Origin: a phage
Sequence record: PZ179881.1
DNA length: 41,801 nucleotides
Direction: 5' to 3' (one strand)
In this document: one piece after another, positions 4,191-38,687 of the stretch
Numbering within the stretch: the first letter of the stretch is position 1
Layout: each line of letters starts with the position of its first letter
Made by a program: the position numbers and the translations under genes
Notes under the pieces: model-generated
Databases searched by the model: none
What the model saw: only the letters and a program-made list of their open reading frames with translations
What the model was told of the DNA's origin: nothing

Positions 4191-4503
4191 AACCTCGCTT
4201 TAACCTGTGGGTTAGCCGGGTTGCCCTGTGCTTTACTCTGTGCGGTATCCTGTGCGTTAACCGGGTTGTACTCACCACGTCCCGCAGGTTTATCAGAGTC
4301 GCCACGGGTTAGACTCAAGGGTTATCGGTTGGTGAGTTTAGCAGTTACATCACCGGGTAACGAGGGTATCGGGTTAACAGTGGCTATAGTAACAGGGTTA
4401 GCCGGGAGTGTCAACCGGGTTTATTCATTGGGTTACTCATTGGTTTAAATCCGGGTAGACAGGCGGCCTATCTGTATCTTCTGCCATTACCCAGAGAGTA
4501 AAT

Positions 4504-4527: not shown

Positions 4528-4565
4528 AGAACGGTCGAATGCGGCTTGTGTATCTGTTACGGCGG

Positions 4566-4770
4566 TAACCCGGAGGGAAGGGAGGGAGGAGAGAGACACG
4601 GGAGAGAGTAACCCAGAGAGGAGACTACCCGGAGAGACTACCCAGAGCATAGCCCAGAGGTTAGCACCCAGAGAGTAACCCAGAGGAGAGCAACCCGGAT
4701 AAGCTAACCCGGTTAACAGACACGGAGAGCAAGCCAGAGAGTAACCCGGCATAGCATAACCCGGAGAGCT
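4566..4770 (+). repeat. Array of about 13 short purine-rich direct repeats (CCCrGAGAG-type units, period about 12-13 bp)
   Basis: Visible tandem units such as ACCCAGAGAG, CCCGGAGAG, CCCAGAGGAGAG, often followed by TAA or CTA; starts about 40 nt downstream of the phage promoter at 4504. Confidence 0.6.
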
Positions 4771-4817: not shown

Positions 4818-4848
4818 AGGGTATCTGTAAATAATTTCTAAAAGAGTG

Positions 4849-4878
4849 TTGACACGGGCTAATCAGTATTGCTATAGT
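4849..4878 (+). promoter_or_regulatory. Sigma70-type host promoter candidate (early)
   Basis: TTGACA (4849-4854), 18-bp spacer, TGcTATAGT extended -10 (4870-4878); AT-rich stretch upstream (4826-4846). Confidence 0.5.
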
Positions 4879-14199: not shown

Positions 14200-16668
14200 A
14201 TGGCTATGAAATGCCTGATTCACGACTGTGAAACAGAAACTAACCCGTGGTATGGACAGGTGGCATCGCCGTACTGCCCGGATAACTACGTGGTTGAGGA
14301 CGCCTGGGAGACGGTAACCCTGGGCGGTGAGGTGGAGATTAGCCCGCGTACCGACCGCCGCTACAACTCGCTTGAGGAGTGGAAGGGCAACTGGTCTGTG
14401 GACTTCTCCGGGATTGATATCTACGTGGCCCACAATGCTGCGTATGAAATGAGCTGGTTACTGGAGCACGACTATGATAACTTCATGGCGTTTCTCAAAC
14501 GTGGTGGTCGTGTTTATTGTACCGCTTACGCTCACTATCTACTCAGCAACATGCAGGACACTTACCCCGCGCTTAACGACGTTGCACCAATCTACGGCGG
14601 TACGCCAAAGGTGGATGCAGTCAAGGCACTATGGGAAGCTGGCGTTAAAACGTCGGATATTGACCCGGCGCTACTTCGGGAGTATCTGTTCGGGCCTAAC
14701 GGCGATATCGCCAACACCACCAAAGTTTTCCTGGGAACGTGGTCGGAGCTTGTTAGACGTAACATGTTGAAGATGGCGCTGGTGCGCATGGATGGCCTGC
14801 TGTTCTCTGCCATCTGTATGCACCACGGCTTGAAGGTTGACATGGAGGTAGCGGAGCGTGACCGCAGCCGTAACGAGCGGTTGCTGGAAGGCCTGCACTC
14901 GCAGGTGATTCAGTATCTGCCAGCGGATATGCCCGCCGAAGCCCGTGCGCAGTTCACCGGGACACGCTTCCAGTTGTCGGCGTTCATCTTCGGTGGCGCT
15001 ATGAAGTACACGGCGCGAGTACCGCGTGAGGATGCCGACGGCAATCCCATCTACGTGAAGAAGGAAGGGCCGTACTTCAAGAGCATCAAAGGAGCGCTGC
15101 CAGAGAGCGCCTGCATGTTCGACGAGGAGGCAGGTGGCCTTTGGTATTCCCCGGAGCTGAAAGAGCACCAGGCGCGTTACACGGCAGGTAAGAACAAAGG
15201 CCTGCCGAAGTTCGATAAGTATGTGACCGACGAGGTTGATACGAAGAACGGCGACCTGCTGTATCACTTCCCCGGCCTGCTGTCTGAGGAGGTGCAGGAG
15301 AAGCTGAGCCTGGCGATTGAGGGTGAGTGGTCTGGTAGCCAGAAGCTGCAAGACGGCAGCCCGGTAATCAGCACCAGTGGTGACGTGTTGGATGTGCTGG
15401 CGGCGCACGACGTGCCAGTAGCTAAGTTGTTGAAAGATATCGGGAAGATTGATAAAGACCTCGGTGCATTCTACATCAAGCGCACGTTCAACAAAGATGG
15501 CAGCTTGAAGAAAGAAGGCGGCATGTTGCAGTACGTGCAGCCGGACGGCTTCATTCACCACACGCTGAACCACACGAGCACCGTGACGGCGCGACTCAGC
15601 TCGAACAAGCCGAACCTCCAGCAGTTACCACGAGCGGAGGAAGCGCGGGACGAGAACGAGTTCAAGTCCACGGTTAAGGAAATGTTCGTGAGTCGCTTCG
15701 GTGACGACGGCGGCATCCTCCAGGAGGACTACAGCGCACTGGAGACGGTTGGTTTGCAGGTGTTGACCCGCGACGTTAACCTCAAGGCTGCGCTGCTCAA
15801 AGGCCTGGACATGCACTCTATGCGCCTCGCGGCGATGGAGAACCAGACCTATGAGTACGTGGTGGCGCGTACCAAAGACGACACGCACCCTGAACACGCT
15901 GAGTGGGACGTGAAGCGTACAGGCGTTAAGCCAGTTGCATTCCAGTATCAGTATGGTGCGACGGCTTACGGCATGGCGATGAGCACTGGTAAATCCCAGG
16001 ACTTCTGCCAGGCGTTCATTGACGCGGAGAAGAAGGCGTTCCCCGGCGTTGAGGACTGGTACGACAACACGGTGTACCCGACGGTGGAAGCGACGGCAGC
16101 GCAGAACAAGCCTATCCGTGTGCAGCTCGACGACGGGCGTTACGTTATGTTCGGCTGGGGTACGTTCACTACCCACGACGGCACGACGTATCAGTTCCGC
16201 CAGCAGAGCAAGCAGCGTTGGAATCCGGTGACTAAGAAGCGTGAGGAAGTCAAGGAGTTCACGGTGCCGCAGATGCGTAACTACCCGATTCAGGGCGCAT
16301 CCGGTTTCTTCGTGCAGCTCGCTTGCGGTATGCTGATTCGTCACTTCATCGCCAACGACTTCTACGGTGGCAAGTGCCTGCCGATTAACACGGTTCACGA
16401 TGCGTGTTACTTCGACACTCACAAAGACGTAGTGTACCAGGCAGCGTATGAGGTGGAGGCCATCATGGAATCCATCCCGGAAATGCTGAATGCACTGTGG
16501 CCTGCGTATCAGTGTGAGGTGCCGTTCCCGGTGGCAGGTGGCTTCGGTAAGAACATGGCCGAGGAGCACCACGTTTACGACAAGGATAGCAAAGACCTGT
16601 TCAAACAGCAGAAAGCGAACTTCAAGAAAGAGTTCCTTGCTAAGAAGGGTATCGCGGTTCAATTCTGA
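14200..16668 (+). CDS. DNA polymerase (family A, with 3'-5' exonuclease domain)
   Basis: 822 aa; exo-like HDCETETNPWYG near N-terminus; pol I-type motifs (SSNKPNLQQLPR, NYPIQGASG, VHDACYFD). Confidence 0.9.
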   Translation: MAMKCLIHDCETETNPWYGQVASPYCPDNYVVEDAWETVTLGGEVEISPRTDRRYNSLEEWKGNWSVDFSGIDIYVAHNAAYEMSWLLEHDYDNFMAFLKRGGRVYCTAYAHYLLSNMQDTYPALNDVAPIYGGTPKVDAVKALWEAGVKTSDIDPALLREYLFGPNGDIANTTKVFLGTWSELVRRNMLKMALVRMDGLLFSAICMHHGLKVDMEVAERDRSRNERLLEGLHSQVIQYLPADMPAEARAQFTGTRFQLSAFIFGGAMKYTARVPREDADGNPIYVKKEGPYFKSIKGALPESACMFDEEAGGLWYSPELKEHQARYTAGKNKGLPKFDKYVTDEVDTKNGDLLYHFPGLLSEEVQEKLSLAIEGEWSGSQKLQDGSPVISTSGDVLDVLAAHDVPVAKLLKDIGKIDKDLGAFYIKRTFNKDGSLKKEGGMLQYVQPDGFIHHTLNHTSTVTARLSSNKPNLQQLPRAEEARDENEFKSTVKEMFVSRFGDDGGILQEDYSALETVGLQVLTRDVNLKAALLKGLDMHSMRLAAMENQTYEYVVARTKDDTHPEHAEWDVKRTGVKPVAFQYQYGATAYGMAMSTGKSQDFCQAFIDAEKKAFPGVEDWYDNTVYPTVEATAAQNKPIRVQLDDGRYVMFGWGTFTTHDGTTYQFRQQSKQRWNPVTKKREEVKEFTVPQMRNYPIQGASGFFVQLACGMLIRHFIANDFYGGKCLPINTVHDACYFDTHKDVVYQAAYEVEAIMESIPEMLNALWPAYQCEVPFPVAGGFGKNMAEEHHVYDKDSKDLFKQQKANFKKEFLAKKGIAVQF
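14892..14905 (+). repeat. Recurring hairpin motif copy 6 (CCTGCACTCGCAGG)
   Basis: Perfect 5-bp stem CCTGC/GCAGG with ACTC loop, inside the DNA polymerase gene. Confidence 0.45.
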
Positions 16669-16684
16669 ATTGACACCCCTATAC
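16665..16684 (+). promoter_or_regulatory. Degenerate promoter-like element (CTGAATTGACACCCCTATAC)
   Basis: Two mismatches to consensus, including the predicted +1 (G to C); overlaps the DNAP stop; followed by CCCAGAGTAACC, which matches the terminal-region repeat unit. Confidence 0.25.
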
Positions 16685-16735
16685 CCAGAGTAACCAAATC
16701 AGTACACAAAGTAACCTAACTGGAGAGTAACCTAT

Positions 16736-17554
16736 ATGACTACTATGCAAGAACGTTTAGCAGCCCGCGCAGAAGCAGCCAAAGCCCGCCAGGGTTCCAT
16801 GAATGATGTTGAGAAGGGTGGCGACGGCAGCGGTAAGAAGTTCAAGACCGCGCCGGAAGGCAAGTTCAAAGCGCGTCTGGTTGGCTATGTCGAAATCGGT
16901 AGCCACGAGAACAAGTTCGACCCGTCGAAAGACCCGGCACCGATGTTCGTTCTGCGCTTCGCCCTGTTCGGTAAGGACTGCCAGGAAGAAGACGGTACGC
17001 CGATTACCATCGACAGCCGTGAAATCAAGATGAGCAAGTTTGAACGTGCGAATGCCGTCAAGCTGTTCCGTCAGATGTGTCCGAAGAAGGATGCCGATCA
17101 CTTCATGGAGCTGCTCGACCGTGTGTTCTGGGTTGAAATCTGGCACAACAAGCAGCAGAAGGGCGATAAAGAAGTCGTGTACGCTAACCTGAAACAGGAG
17201 TCAATCGTACCGGGTGTGCGTGAAGTGCTGGACGACGACGACAACATCATCGGCTACAAGGCGATTGCATGTGACCCGGCACCGGAGAGCATGTTCAACA
17301 TCTTCGAATGGGATAACCCGTCCGTCGAAGACTTCAAGACCTTGAAGCCGTGGGACAAGGACAAGATTCGCAAGGCTGTGAACTTCCCTGGCTCCCACGT
17401 TGAGCAGCTCGTCGGTAAGGGCGAAGATAAGCCTGCCAACACCAACAACGGTGCGGCGACCAACGAGCCGGACGGCGAAGACGACGAGCCGAAACAGACT
17501 GTGGATACTCCGAAGGATATCCCGGTTGAAGGCGCTGACCTGCCGATGCTGTAA
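16736..17554 (+). CDS. Hypothetical protein with strongly acidic C-terminal tail (possible DNA-binding accessory protein)
   Basis: 272 aa; basic N-terminal region, C-terminal ~40 aa rich in D/E (NEPDGEDDEPKQTVDTPKDIPVEGADLPML); GGAGAG upstream. Confidence 0.65.
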   Translation: MTTMQERLAARAEAAKARQGSMNDVEKGGDGSGKKFKTAPEGKFKARLVGYVEIGSHENKFDPSKDPAPMFVLRFALFGKDCQEEDGTPITIDSREIKMSKFERANAVKLFRQMCPKKDADHFMELLDRVFWVEIWHNKQQKGDKEVVYANLKQESIVPGVREVLDDDDNIIGYKAIACDPAPESMFNIFEWDNPSVEDFKTLKPWDKDKIRKAVNFPGSHVEQLVGKGEDKPANTNNGAATNEPDGEDDEPKQTVDTPKDIPVEGADLPML

Positions 17555-19391: not shown

Positions 19392-20434
19392 TGGCAAAGG
19401 TATCCCTAATCAATCTCTTTACCAAAGAGCAGCACATCGCGGTACTGAGCAAGTTCAAGTCGAATGCCGACGCAGCTCTGGCCTATAACATCGCCCTGGC
19501 CTACGGCGAGTCTGCCGACAAGATTGGCGAGGGTGACCTCAAAGAGTTCGGCCCGGCGCTGAGCGTCGGCGAGCACGAAGTAATCAGCCGTCAGTTGGTT
19601 CGCTACTGGCGTAACATCTTCATCGACCACGAAGGCAAGAAAGGAGCCACCAATGCAGGACTCAAAGAAGCGCGTAAACTCATCTCTCCATCGCCTACTG
19701 ACGATATCGGTAACACTCAAGTGCCTAGCATGTGTCGCCGTATTCTTGTCGTTGGTGACCTACACGCTCCTTACACACACCCCGACGCGTTAGACTTCCT
19801 GCGCCACGTTCGTGACAGCTACGGCCCGGACATGGTGATTCAGGTGGGCGACGAGACGGACGGACACGCAATCAGCTTCCACGACAGCGACCCTAACCTG
19901 GACAGCGCTGGTGTTGAGCTGGAGAAGGCTAAACTGGTACTGGAGAAGCTGCATGAACTGTTCCCGAACCTGCTTGTGTGTGACTCGAATCACGGCAGTC
20001 TGGTGTATCGCCGCGCTAAGGCTCACGGTTTACCAGTACAGTTCATCAAGAAGTATCGAGACATTCTGTTCCCGGAACATGGTGCGCCAGCGTGGTCGTG
20101 GGCAGATGCCTGGGTGCTTAACACCCCTCTCGGCCCTGTACGTTTCCAGCACCAGGTTAGTGGTGACTTCATGCTCAACGCTTCCCACGAACGCACAAGC
20201 CTCGTCCTCGGTCATGAGCATGGGCGCTTCGAGGTTCAATATGCGGCATCCAGCACCGCTCTTTACTTTGGCGCATACGCCGGGTGCCTGATTGACCGCA
20301 AGAGCATGGCATTCGCCTACGGCAAGCTGACCCGTAAGAAGCCTATCCTGGGCTGCATGGTAATCACCGATGGTTGCCCGCAGCTTATCCCAATGCTGAT
20401 GAACGAGGAGGGCCGCTGGGTTGGCGCGGAATAA
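19391..20434 (+). CDS. Calcineurin-like metallophosphoesterase with extra N-terminal domain
   Basis: 347 aa; MPP signature blocks VVGDLHAPYTHPD, GDETDGH, NHGS and GHEHG; ~110-aa N-terminal extension unrecognised. Confidence 0.65.
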   Translation: MAKVSLINLFTKEQHIAVLSKFKSNADAALAYNIALAYGESADKIGEGDLKEFGPALSVGEHEVISRQLVRYWRNIFIDHEGKKGATNAGLKEARKLISPSPTDDIGNTQVPSMCRRILVVGDLHAPYTHPDALDFLRHVRDSYGPDMVIQVGDETDGHAISFHDSDPNLDSAGVELEKAKLVLEKLHELFPNLLVCDSNHGSLVYRRAKAHGLPVQFIKKYRDILFPEHGAPAWSWADAWVLNTPLGPVRFQHQVSGDFMLNASHERTSLVLGHEHGRFEVQYAASSTALYFGAYAGCLIDRKSMAFAYGKLTRKKPILGCMVITDGCPQLIPMLMNEEGRWVGAE

Positions 20435-21296: not shown

Positions 21297-21377
21297 CTGG
21301 TGCTTTAGACAATGGGTGTCCACGGGTAACGTGGACTACCTGCAATTATATCATGAGTGGAAGGGCAGAGGATACTG

Positions 21378-23828
21378 ATGGCAACACTGGAACAACAGTT
21401 GGAGTGGGAGCGTAAGCACCGTGAGCTAGGCCAGGCTAAGATGGCTGCGCAGCTACAGGCTGCAAAGGAAGACGGACGCATAACCGATACTCCCCTGGGT
21501 TCCGTTGTGCTTCGCCGTTACCTGCTCTGGCTGTCTCGTAAGATAGCGAAGGACGTAACCACTGACCTGGACGAGCCGGGGCGCAGCAAGGCGTATAGCC
21601 CTCTGCTGTTCTCCCTGGACATGGACGCGGTGGCACTGCTGGCAATCTCTGAGGCGTTGAAGCTGTGTGTGGCTGGCCCGGTGCAGGCGACTACCCTGGG
21701 CTTCGCCATCGGCAAGGTGCTGTATGGTGAGCTTGCTCTCGCAGCATTCCGCGACATGAACGCGAATCTGTATGAGGTGCTGACCGAAGACCTCCAGCGC
21801 AAGATGAGTAAAGACCTGCGCCACCGCATGACTATCTTCCGTATGCAGGCCCAGAAGAACGGCATTGAGCTGCCGGAGTGGACGCCGACGCAGAAGCTCC
21901 AGGTGGGTATGTACGTCATGGGCCTCATGAGTACGCCGAACGAAGACGGTGAGGTACTGCTGGAGAACACGCTCAAGAGCTACGGCAAGAAGACCAAGTA
22001 CATGGTTGACCTCGCGCCGGAAATCCACAAGCTCATGCAGGGTATTGAGGGCAGCATCATCGGTCGTTCCGGGTTCGCGGCACCGTGTCTGATTCCTCCG
22101 CAGGACTGGACGGGTGAAGAAGGTGTCGGCGGGTTCCACGGCGACCTCAAGATTCGCGCTGTACGTTTCTTCAAAGGTTCTACCTATCAATGGGAGGTTA
22201 TGAATAGCGAGGGCCATAATCCAGAGGTCACCCTGGCTATGCTCAACGCTCACCAGAAGGTAGCTTGGAAGGTAAATCCTTTCATTCTCGACTTATTGAA
22301 AGGTATGCGCTATCACGGATACGGTATCCGTAAGAAGGTCGAGTTCAGCAGCGCACACGAGAAGATTAAACCTGAGCGCCTGGAGTGGCTCGACACGGTT
22401 AAGGAAGGAGACTTCACAGATGTGCAGCAGTACAACTTCGAGACGTGGAAGCGGAAGATGCGCGACTGGCACACTGAGGCCAAACGCATTGGTCGTGTTG
22501 AACTGCGGTGCAACATGGCGATTAGTGCGGCTCAGGAAGTCAGCACGTTAGACCGATTTTACTATGTATATCAAGTAGATAACCGTGGTCGCATGTATCC
22601 GGTATCCGGGCTGCTTAACCCGCAGGGCAGTGACGTGCAGAAGGCGTTGCTCCACGCAGCGGACGGCGAGCCGATTGATACGCCGGAGGCACTCTGGTGG
22701 TTCAAGATGGGTATCGCCAGCAAGTTCGGCATAGATAAACTGGCCCCGGAAGACTGCGTTAAATGGGTGGACGACAACCATGCAAACATCATCCGGGCCG
22801 CTGACGACCCACTTGACCGAGACGCTTTTAACTGGTGGACTGGCGCTGATAAACCCTTGCAATTCATCGCCTTGTGTGATGAGTATCGCAGATATCACGA
22901 GTCACCAACCACCTTCGTCTCCCGCATCGCCGTCGCAATGGACGGAACCTGTAACGGCCTCCAGAACTATTCCGCCATGCTGCGAGATAGCGTGGGTGGA
23001 CGAGCTACAAACCTCATTAGCGCAGATAATGGCATACCTAACGATATCTATGGAGACGTCGCCAAAGCGTCATTTAAGCGACTTGGCAGAATGGAGGCGT
23101 CAAATCTGCGAACCGATTGGGTCAACTACGGCTTCGACCGTAGCCTTACTAAGAAGTCTGTAATGACCCAGGTGTACGGCTCCACCTTCGGTACTTGCCG
23201 AAAGTCAATCATTGAATACTGCTACGATAAACAAATCTTCGAAGGCTCGGAGTATGACCACGCTGATTATGCAGCGCGTCTGGTCTGGGACGGCATCGGG
23301 GATGTGGTTGTCAAGGCGAAGGAAGCGATGGACTGGCTGCGCAAGAGCGCCGGGGCGGTGATGAAGGAGGGTGCTGAGTACATTACCTGGCTGGCACCGA
23401 CCGGGTTCCGAGTCGTGCAGGTTTACAACAAGCACAAGACCATGCAGGTTCGTGCGCATATCGGCAAGAACGTGCGGCTGCGCGTACCTGACCCGGAGAA
23501 CATCGACGGGCCGGACAAGATGCGCCACCGTAACGCACTGCCGCCGAACTTCATTCACAGCATCGACAGTAGCCACATGGCGTTCGTATCGGTGCGCCTG
23601 GCGGCAGAGCTAGACGGGATGTTCATGCACTTCATCCACGACGACTTCGGGGTGCTGCCGAAACATGCGGCGCTGCTCTCGCGGGTAATTCGTGAGGAGT
23701 TCGTGAAGATGCACGAGAACTACAGCCTGGAGGACTTCAAGGCCGGGTATGAGTTCCTTGATGAGCCACCTGCAAAGGGTGACTTAGATATTAACTGTGT
23801 ATTAACCAGTGTTAACTTCTTTAGGTAA
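21378..23828 (+). CDS. Single-subunit DNA-dependent RNA polymerase (T7-like)
   Basis: 816 aa from ATG 21378 (AGAGGA upstream; track ORF starts at GTG 21357); conserved blocks MDGTCNGLQNYSAMLRDSVGGRATNL, PPNFIHSIDSSHM and FMHFIHDDFG align with T7 RNAP motifs. Confidence 0.9.
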   Translation: MATLEQQLEWERKHRELGQAKMAAQLQAAKEDGRITDTPLGSVVLRRYLLWLSRKIAKDVTTDLDEPGRSKAYSPLLFSLDMDAVALLAISEALKLCVAGPVQATTLGFAIGKVLYGELALAAFRDMNANLYEVLTEDLQRKMSKDLRHRMTIFRMQAQKNGIELPEWTPTQKLQVGMYVMGLMSTPNEDGEVLLENTLKSYGKKTKYMVDLAPEIHKLMQGIEGSIIGRSGFAAPCLIPPQDWTGEEGVGGFHGDLKIRAVRFFKGSTYQWEVMNSEGHNPEVTLAMLNAHQKVAWKVNPFILDLLKGMRYHGYGIRKKVEFSSAHEKIKPERLEWLDTVKEGDFTDVQQYNFETWKRKMRDWHTEAKRIGRVELRCNMAISAAQEVSTLDRFYYVYQVDNRGRMYPVSGLLNPQGSDVQKALLHAADGEPIDTPEALWWFKMGIASKFGIDKLAPEDCVKWVDDNHANIIRAADDPLDRDAFNWWTGADKPLQFIALCDEYRRYHESPTTFVSRIAVAMDGTCNGLQNYSAMLRDSVGGRATNLISADNGIPNDIYGDVAKASFKRLGRMEASNLRTDWVNYGFDRSLTKKSVMTQVYGSTFGTCRKSIIEYCYDKQIFEGSEYDHADYAARLVWDGIGDVVVKAKEAMDWLRKSAGAVMKEGAEYITWLAPTGFRVVQVYNKHKTMQVRAHIGKNVRLRVPDPENIDGPDKMRHRNALPPNFIHSIDSSHMAFVSVRLAAELDGMFMHFIHDDFGVLPKHAALLSRVIREEFVKMHENYSLEDFKAGYEFLDEPPAKGDLDINCVLTSVNFFR

Positions 23829-23854
23829 TAACAGTAAGATAACCTGGGTTAACC

Positions 23855-23874
23855 CTATAGCGGTGCCAATTCAG
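23855..23874 (-). promoter_or_regulatory. Inverted promoter-like copy (minus strand reads CTGAATTGGCACCGCTATAG then GGTTAACC)
   Basis: Reverse complement of + strand 23855-23874 matches the promoter consensus with one mismatch; points leftwards into the 3' end of the RNAP gene; back-to-back with the + strand promoter at 23911. Confidence 0.45.
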
Positions 23875-23910
23875 CGAAAGCTATCAGTTAACAGTGATTG
23901 ATAGGTGAAC

Positions 23911-23934
23911 CTGATTTGGCACTCCTATAGCAAC
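23911..23934 (+). promoter_or_regulatory. Phage RNAP promoter upstream of the structural module
   Basis: CTGATTTGGCACTCCTATAGCAAC, two mismatches to the other copies; followed by AACTAAACGG and a small ORF with a good SD. Confidence 0.65.
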
Positions 23935-27361: not shown

Positions 27362-27385
27362 TTGAATTGGCACCCCTATAGCAAC
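27362..27385 (+). promoter_or_regulatory. Phage RNAP promoter upstream of major capsid gene
   Basis: TTGAATTGGCACCCCTATAGCAAC followed by the conserved AACTAAACGA and a hairpin; ~60 nt before the capsid start. Confidence 0.7.
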
Positions 27386-28465: not shown

Positions 28466-28499
28466 AGTGGCCCTTCGGGGCCGCTTCTTCTTTCTCCTG
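28466..28499 (+). terminator. Stem-loop terminator after major capsid gene (T7 Tphi-like position)
   Basis: GTGGCCC-TTCG-GGGCCGC hairpin (7-bp stem with one G-U pair, tetraloop) followed by a pyrimidine-rich run CTTCTTCTTTCTCC, 6 nt after the capsid stop. Confidence 0.6.
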
Positions 28500-38663: not shown

Positions 38664-38687
38664 TTGAATTGGCACCCCTATAGTAAC
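38664..38687 (+). promoter_or_regulatory. Phage RNAP promoter upstream of tail fibre gene
   Basis: TTGAATTGGCACCCCTATAGTAAC followed by TAAACGAGGG; ~25 nt before the tail fibre ATG. Confidence 0.7.

Follow-up and report, generated by a model that had tools for sequence, protein, structure and literature searches.

The sequence record PZ179881.1 (41,801 bases, the window analyzed here) is the complete, circularly permuted genome of a podovirus, a GAP227-like Cronobacter phage classified in the Autographiviridae, Melnykvirinae, Cronosvirus. All of its genes are carried on the + strand. DNA polymerase is encoded at 14200-16668 (+; Pfam DNA_pol_A match), within a region with 98-99% identity to the Cronobacter phages GY3, EspYZU05, and GAP227. 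Its gene is followed by a homologue of GAP227 gp21 (16736-17554, +; PHROG 862, function unknown), and then by genes for an exonuclease, endonuclease VII, a phosphoesterase, and a single-subunit RNA polymerase (21357-23828, +). The spacer from the DNA polymerase stop codon to the ATG at 16736 is 67 bases long and holds a promoter motif oriented, like the genes, on the + strand. An earlier note on this DNA described the element as a hybrid, the upstream half of a phage promoter with its initiating G changed to C, fused to a terminal-repeat unit, and proposed that it might be a weak or regulated promoter, a decayed duplication, or a recombination scar. Here we consider which of these descriptions the element deserves.

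The motif, CTGAATTGACACCCCTATA at 16665-16683 (+), corresponds to the predicted recognition region, -19 to -1, of a promoter for the phage single-subunit RNA polymerase. It is identical to the genome consensus, CTGAATTGGCACCCCTATA, at 18 of 19 bases. When the genome is scanned for the 19-base motif with up to three mismatches allowed, six copies are found against 0.01 expected by chance. The other members of the family are the left-end promoter P1 (4504-4522, +), the copies 5' of the first late gene (23911-23929, +), the major capsid gene (27362-27380, +), and the tail fibre gene (38664-38682, +), and an antisense copy immediately beyond the RNA polymerase gene (23856-23874, -). The claim that the recognition region is reproduced after the DNA polymerase gene is thus borne out, as is the replacement of the initiating base: TATA is followed by G in all five other copies and by C at the expected +1 of this one (16684). 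The other four + strand copies read G(T/C)AAC(T/A)(A/G)AACG after TATA, whereas here the C is followed by CCAGAGTAACC. At -18 to -16 the motif takes in the stop codon TGA (16666-16668) that closes the DNA polymerase gene; in Yersinia phage ISAO8 this codon and the promoter overlap likewise (TTCTGA).

Within the specificity bases (-14 to -9) the site reads TTGACA against TTGGCA, a single mismatch at -11 (16673, G to A), which is among the bases that distinguish the promoter types of relatives. The homologous sites of GAP227, GY3, EspYZU05, and Kc318 and the other copies in the genome all have G at -11, the A being specific to the studied genome. The RNA polymerases of the studied phage and GAP227 are identical over the presumed specificity loop. 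The change also turns TTGGCA (16670-16675) into a perfect -35 hexamer for the host sigma-70 factor; a host promoter was rejected, there being no acceptable -10 element 16-18 bases downstream.

The general plan of the motif is that of the T7, SP6, and K11 promoters. The family itself is already known, and it has been validated experimentally in one congener. The purified RNA polymerase of Dev-CD-23823 (CD23823), which is 81% identical to that of the studied phage, transcribes in vitro from CTGAATGTATACCCCTATATACACTAAACG, with a mapped +1 of A and a minimal promoter of AATGTATACCCCTATATACAC (PMC12272871). In Yersinia phage phi80-18, four predicted phage promoters follow the same plan (PMC7316996). 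We scanned the whole genomes of relatives for the promoter copies of each phage, which gave the following types. GAP227 and the studied phage have TTGGCA-CCCCTATA-G, EspYZU13 TGTGCA-CCCCTATA-G, Dev-CD-23823 TGTATA-CCCCTATA-T(ACAC), IMG/VR contig L019 TGTATA-CCCCTATA-G, PP2 TTGGCA-CCCCTATA-A, phi80-18 TGTCTA-CCCATATA-G, and ISAO8 TGTCTA-CCCTATT-A. The polymerase residues that align with the T7 specificity loop track the promoter type, VRLR going with GCA, VFL(K/R) with ATA, and IALK with CTA.

Every Cronosvirus examined, and likewise ISAO8 (genus Aghbyvirus), carries a promoter copy in the interval separating the DNA polymerase gene from the gp21 homologue. The sample comprises GAP227, GY3, EspYZU05, Kc318, EspYZU13, Dev-CD-23823, IMG/VR contigs L014 and L019, metagenome contig L020, and ISAO8, the metagenome scan having contributed one EspYZU13-like contig. 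A further IMG/VR contig, L015, was set aside as a chance match to the 19-mer. The site is therefore conserved among relatives at a syntenic position, a point on which the earlier note had made its proposal depend in part. At each syntenic site, the bases from -14 to -9 show no mismatch to the consensus of the phage's own promoters (one in the studied phage) and two to four mismatches to those of other specificity classes. In the GAP227-like and EspYZU13-like phages the agreement is perfect from -17 to -1, the studied genome excepted. These two groups have the C start and CCCAGAGTAACC in common while differing in their specificity bases, which indicates that the recognition half has stayed matched to the polymerase despite a noncanonical start. 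The strongest reason to think the site still in use is this match, which also weighs against a scar or a copy in decay.

The start region varies among lineages. The C followed by CCAGAGTAACC is found in five GAP227-like and three EspYZU13-like sequences. The Dev-CD-23823 site begins with TACAC, the consensus start of that phage, and is only one base off the validated minimal promoter. The L019 site has GTAC. The ISAO8 site has TAG, against AAA in the four canonical promoters of that phage, its left-end copy included. Both of the noncanonical promoters of ISAO8, the one after the DNA polymerase gene and the first after the RNA polymerase gene, read TATT then TAG, and the canonical ones TATT then AAA. 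In ISAO8 (L031; 4361-4390 and 11732-11760), part of the post-DNA-polymerase promoter and its leader is also repeated, as CGTATGTCTACCCTAGTTAGTGATAAC, within gene gp08. Across the subfamily, the base at +1 is A in PP2, T followed by A in Dev-CD-23823 (where the A start was mapped), A or T in ISAO8, and G in the other types listed above. A G at +1 is therefore not obligatory in the subfamily. Among polymerases of other phages, that of Syn5 retains 52% of its yield when C is at +1, and that of T7 strongly prefers GTP as the first nucleotide and uses CTP very poorly (PMC3950665).

The balance of the sequence evidence tips toward 16665-16683 being an attenuated promoter, similar to the class II promoters of T7, for the block of genes that begins at 16736 and reaches the RNA polymerase gene. 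The comparative evidence, namely, synteny and specificity bases that follow each phage's own promoter type, argues that the site is recognized by the polymerase and is not a scar or a decayed copy. Of the possibilities raised earlier, the comparison thus favors the first, a promoter of weak or regulated activity serving the gene downstream. The setting also fits a promoter: the orientation is right, the gene with its good ribosome-binding site is 52 bases away, and the leader is unstructured. The phage polymerase, once made, would bind the site and start a transcript at or beside 16684, either at the C or at the neighboring A of TATA. Such initiation would add transcripts of the 16736 gene, the exonuclease, endonuclease VII, and phosphoesterase genes, and the RNA polymerase gene to those supplied by read-through from the left end. 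The promoter is expected to be weak, given that CCCAGAG replaces the G(T/C)AAC... start in the GAP227 and EspYZU13 lineages and that the studied genome has in addition the A at -11. We found no terminator-like sites between 16665-16683 and the RNA polymerase gene. Since the site lies 5' of that gene with no intervening terminator, a positive feedback loop is possible.

Several observations weigh against a working promoter. Both the purine at +1 and the family start sequence G(T/C)AAC(T/A)(A/G)AACG are missing; in the start region, agreement with the consensus is limited to 2 of 11 positions, the other 9 being mismatches. CTP would be needed at each of the first three positions of the template. 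The A at -11 falls at a position that separates promoter types in the genus. In Dev-CD-23823, trimming of the promoter was tolerated no further than ...TATATACAC (PMC12272871), so the first transcribed bases matter for that polymerase. Neither the post-DNA-polymerase spacer nor its promoter site is present in phi80-18 and fHe-Yen3-01 (Pokrovskaiavirus) or in PP2 and Arno160 (Wanjuvirus), and the site is therefore dispensable in relatives. Finally, recombination at the conserved CCCCTATA core, and not selection, could in principle be the source of the co-variation of the site with promoter type.

The 52-base leader (16684-16735, +) has TAACC/AGTAACC cores at 16689-16695, 16710-16716, and 16726-16732, separated by A/G-rich stretches. 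A Shine-Dalgarno sequence, GGAGAG (16722-16727, +), can be read 8 bases 5' of the ATG at 16736. The leader opens with a segment, (C)C(A/T)GA(G)TAA(C/A), that is found in diverged form in all lineages including ISAO8, which suggests that it is an old part of the spacer and not a recent junction. Other functions considered for the leader were rejected. An RNA structure, riboswitch, or known RNA family is contradicted by folding weaker than that of 199 of 200 shuffled sequences (fold z = +2.07) and by an Rfam search that gave no meaningful match at E <= 1. There is no hairpin that could make the leader a terminator or pause site, and its nearest look-alike of the pause signal ATCTGTT, ATCAGTA, is not kept in EspYZU13. 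A decayed second promoter (AAATCAG..ACAC..AAAGTAAC, compared with the P1 region) scores 23, a value reached by about 4% of shuffles and well below that of the array match described below.

In a different role, 16665-16683 would be a docking site. The polymerase would recognize it without making productive transcripts, and would serve there in replication priming or DNA opening, or be held near its own gene. This role would suit a recognition half that is conserved and co-varies with the polymerase next to a start region that is noncanonical in two lineages. It would also suit the leader's G+C content, 40% against 56% for the genome, which places it among the twelve most A+T-rich 60-base stretches. 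However, the A+T-rich stretch that follows the site is only about 50 bases long and is also a plain translation-initiation region. The cumulative GC skew gives no origin signal near 16.7 kb, although the skew is monotonic and as such uninformative. The start sequence at the same site is normal in Dev-CD-23823 and L019, and a layout more like that of an origin is found elsewhere in the genome, at 23780-23875, where the antisense promoter faces the most A+T-rich 60 bases. On these grounds we regard a docking site as unlikely.

The antisense promoter merits a description of its own. It reads CTGAATTGGCACCGCTATA followed by GGGTTAACCCAGG (23856-23874, minus strand), and points back into the terminal part of the RNA polymerase gene and into the A+T-rich stretch just mentioned (27% G+C at 23782). 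The arrangement at 23780-23875 is a candidate for either an origin or an antisense regulator of the polymerase gene. The antisense copy is also present in GAP227, Dev-CD-23823, phi80-18, fHe-Yen3-01, and PP2, and is degenerate in EspYZU13; in phi80-18 it lies outside the four published promoters. In L019 the homologous element is on the + strand (the alignment score is 40 with the reverse complement and 22 with the same strand), and in ISAO8 a + strand promoter copy lies directly 3' of the RNA polymerase gene.

The deviations from consensus could alternatively mean that the promoter is dying in the studied genome and its close relatives, having lost its start sequence and, here, suffered a mutation in a recognition base, with too little time having passed for the remainder to erode. 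Two deviations do fall at functionally critical positions, -11 and +1, and the change at -11 is the sole core substitution across the six promoter copies between the studied genome and GAP227. Besides, phi80-18, fHe-Yen3-01, and PP2 manage without the site. Against a dying promoter, the C start is common to GAP227-like and EspYZU13-like phages, whose gp21 proteins are only 73% identical and whose specificities differ. Also, leaving aside the studied genome, the bases from -17 to -1 match the phage's own consensus perfectly, and a 19-mer free of constraint would not track a change of specificity. Loss of function in progress seems to us an improbable account of the site, and the decayed duplication proposed earlier is not favored by the comparison.

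The possibility that the leader derives from elsewhere in the genome rests on its likeness to a degenerate purine-rich array at 4566-4770 (+), made of units such as (C)CCAGAG(AG)TAACC. The leader as a whole does resemble the array in this genome. Its bases 16682-16732 align collinearly with 4639-4695, the best match within the array, with a score of 39; shuffled sequences score 17.7 +/- 3.4, and none of 2000 reach 39. The array is the top-scoring region when the leader is aligned locally with the whole genome, and among 52-base windows outside the left-end region the leader has the most 6- and 7-mers in common with the array. The 8-mer AGAGTAAC occurs six times on the + strand, three times in the array, twice in the leader, and once in a ribosome-binding site. 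The earlier identification of the sequence after TATA with the array unit holds for this overall similarity but not for the unit itself: CCCAGAGTAACC has a single exact occurrence in the genome, at 16684, and the closest forms in the array, CCCAGAGAGTAACC and GCCAGAGAGTAACC, each have a 2-base insertion. The similarity is strong in the GAP227 lineage only. It is not significant in EspYZU13 (a score of 27 against a genome maximum of 29) or in Dev-CD-23823 (21 against 26). In ISAO8, the 8-mer GTGATAAC of the leader recurs in the array in the opposite orientation.

The label of terminal-repeat unit is not borne out by comparison with phi80-18. The right edge of the left terminal repeat of that phage has been mapped experimentally to base 325 (PMC7316996). 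This base falls within GGCGGnnTATCTnT, a motif invariant in five phages, and its homologue in the studied genome is at about 4470, some 30 bases 5' of P1 (4504). The array, which starts at 4566, is therefore probably unique sequence, lying about 95-300 bases inside this edge and downstream of the left-end promoter.

A recombination or duplication product joining the promoter to a piece of the left-end array, possibly through a 6-base CCCAGA insertion between TATA and a GTAAC start, appears quite doubtful. It would explain why the leader is the best match to the array in the genome, why AGAGTAAC is concentrated in the two places, and why 8 of 11 bases of GTAACCAAATC, which follows CCCAGA, agree with GTAACTAAACG, the start consensus. 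However, matches of 8 of 11 to the start consensus occur genome-wide at chance density (71 found, 72 expected), and an insertion splitting the promoter from its start is weakly supported. The lack of significant similarity in EspYZU13 and Dev-CD-23823, and the probable position of the array outside the terminal repeat, are further points against such a product. The homologous leader segment present in every lineage, including ISAO8, would make any such event ancient and compatible with promoter function, and the recombination scar to the terminal region suggested in the earlier note is disfavored on the same grounds.

The units of the array are specific to lineages. They are GAGAGTAACCCAGAG in GAP227 and EspYZU13, CATAGAGTAAGC in Dev-CD-23823, CAGAGTAACT and CTATAGAG in PP2 (L012, 1-170), and ACTAAGGG and GATAGAGAG in phi80-18. 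Many of them are similar to a promoter core with a start sequence attached (CCC..A.AGTAAC). In PP2, a Pectobacterium phage, ACAGAGTAACTACAGAGTA, which is the PP2 array unit, comes next to the antisense promoter (19820-19853, minus strand) that lies 3' of the polymerase gene, on its downstream side. AGTAACC/CCAGAG-type units accompany the left-end promoter (the array of about 200 bases), the promoter at 16665-16683 (the three-unit leader), and the antisense promoter of PP2. It is conceivable, though we would give the idea little weight, that these units form a functional module on the non-late promoters of the subfamily, providing repeated binding sites, in DNA or nascent RNA, through which a factor from phage or host would tune or redirect the polymerase. 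If so, the C-start site would be a regulated or noncanonical initiation site, beyond being merely weak.

Other features of the left end and of the genes around the site can be noted briefly. The heptamer ATCTGT(T/A) occurs at 4470-4476, 4551-4557, and 4823-4829. The first of these is where the right edge of the terminal repeat is predicted to fall, within GGCGGnnTATCTnT; the second, ATCTGTT, comes after P1 and before the array, about 30 bases 3' of the left-end promoter start, and is kept in Dev-CD-23823, EspYZU13, and phi80-18. ATCTGTT is the class II pause and termination signal of T7, found at the T7 concatemer junction, so the heptamer could mark a polymerase pause tied to end processing. 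Directly 3' of the array, at 4848-4878, is a strong host-type promoter, TTGACAcgggctaatcagtattgcTATAGT, presumed to be the first early promoter; GAP227 has a sigma-70-type promoter annotated in the equivalent region. The longest reading frame of the RNA polymerase begins (21357-21377) at a GTG seven codons 5' of the start annotated in GAP227 (MATLEQ...). Between 12 and 28.6 kb, the sole strong hairpin resembling an intrinsic terminator is at 28466-28485, 3' of the major capsid gene. Its stem of 8 pairs includes 6 G-C pairs and leads into a T-rich tail, and GAP227 has a stem-loop annotated at the equivalent place.

If the proposed promoter at 16665-16683 is active, Cronosvirus phages would gain a promoter for their own polymerase inside the block of DNA-metabolism genes. 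Such a promoter is absent from the published maps of the subfamily: none of the four promoters predicted in phi80-18 is at this position, and none is annotated here in the GAP227 record. Neither the position nor its C-start form is described in the literature that we searched. The site also offers a natural test case for the tolerance of the CD23823 polymerase clade, newly characterized and of biotechnological interest, to a pyrimidine at +1 and a change at -11. Beyond the questions of feedback and tolerance, it is an ordinary regulatory element.

Among known systems, the class II (middle) promoters of T7 (such as phi1.1A/B, 2.5, and 4.7) provide the closest functional parallel that we would draw. 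They are off-consensus, are less strong than the late ones, and add to read-through transcription. Like them, 16665-16683 is an off-consensus copy among DNA-metabolism genes, deviating especially near the start site. However, the T7 class II promoters initiate at a purine (A at phi2.5, otherwise G), and T7 has about ten of them whereas the studied phage has one. In T7 the polymerase gene is not transcribed by its own product, whereas the present site lies 5' of the RNA polymerase gene. The lysozyme-based class switch of T7 has no evident counterpart, because the endolysin of the studied phage is a different type of enzyme. The primary replication origin of T7 also consists of promoters, phi1.1A/B, followed by an A+T-rich region, and here too a phage promoter precedes a locally A+T-rich stretch within the DNA-metabolism region. 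Unlike the T7 origin, the stretch is about 50 bases long, doubles as the ribosome-binding region, and comes with no skew or other origin signal.

The promoters of Dev-CD-23823, a phage of the same genus, are closer in sequence. They share the architecture of TGAAT, specificity bases, CCCCTATA, and start, and one copy occupies the homologous position after the DNA polymerase gene. The differences are in the specificity bases (TTGACA, of the TTGGCA type, in the studied site and TGTATA in Dev-CD-23823) and in the start (CCCAGAG and TACAC). The in vitro work concerned one consensus promoter of Dev-CD-23823, other than the site at 16665-16683 and its polymerase (PMC12272871). In phi80-18, of the same subfamily, the motif has the same plan, TGAT(T/a)(c/g)TCTACCCATATAG(c/t)AA, and the left-end, post-RNA-polymerase, capsid, and tail-fibre promoters are positioned as in the studied phage (PMC7316996). 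Compared to phi80-18, the promoter after the DNA polymerase gene is an extra position, found only in Cronosvirus and Aghbyvirus.

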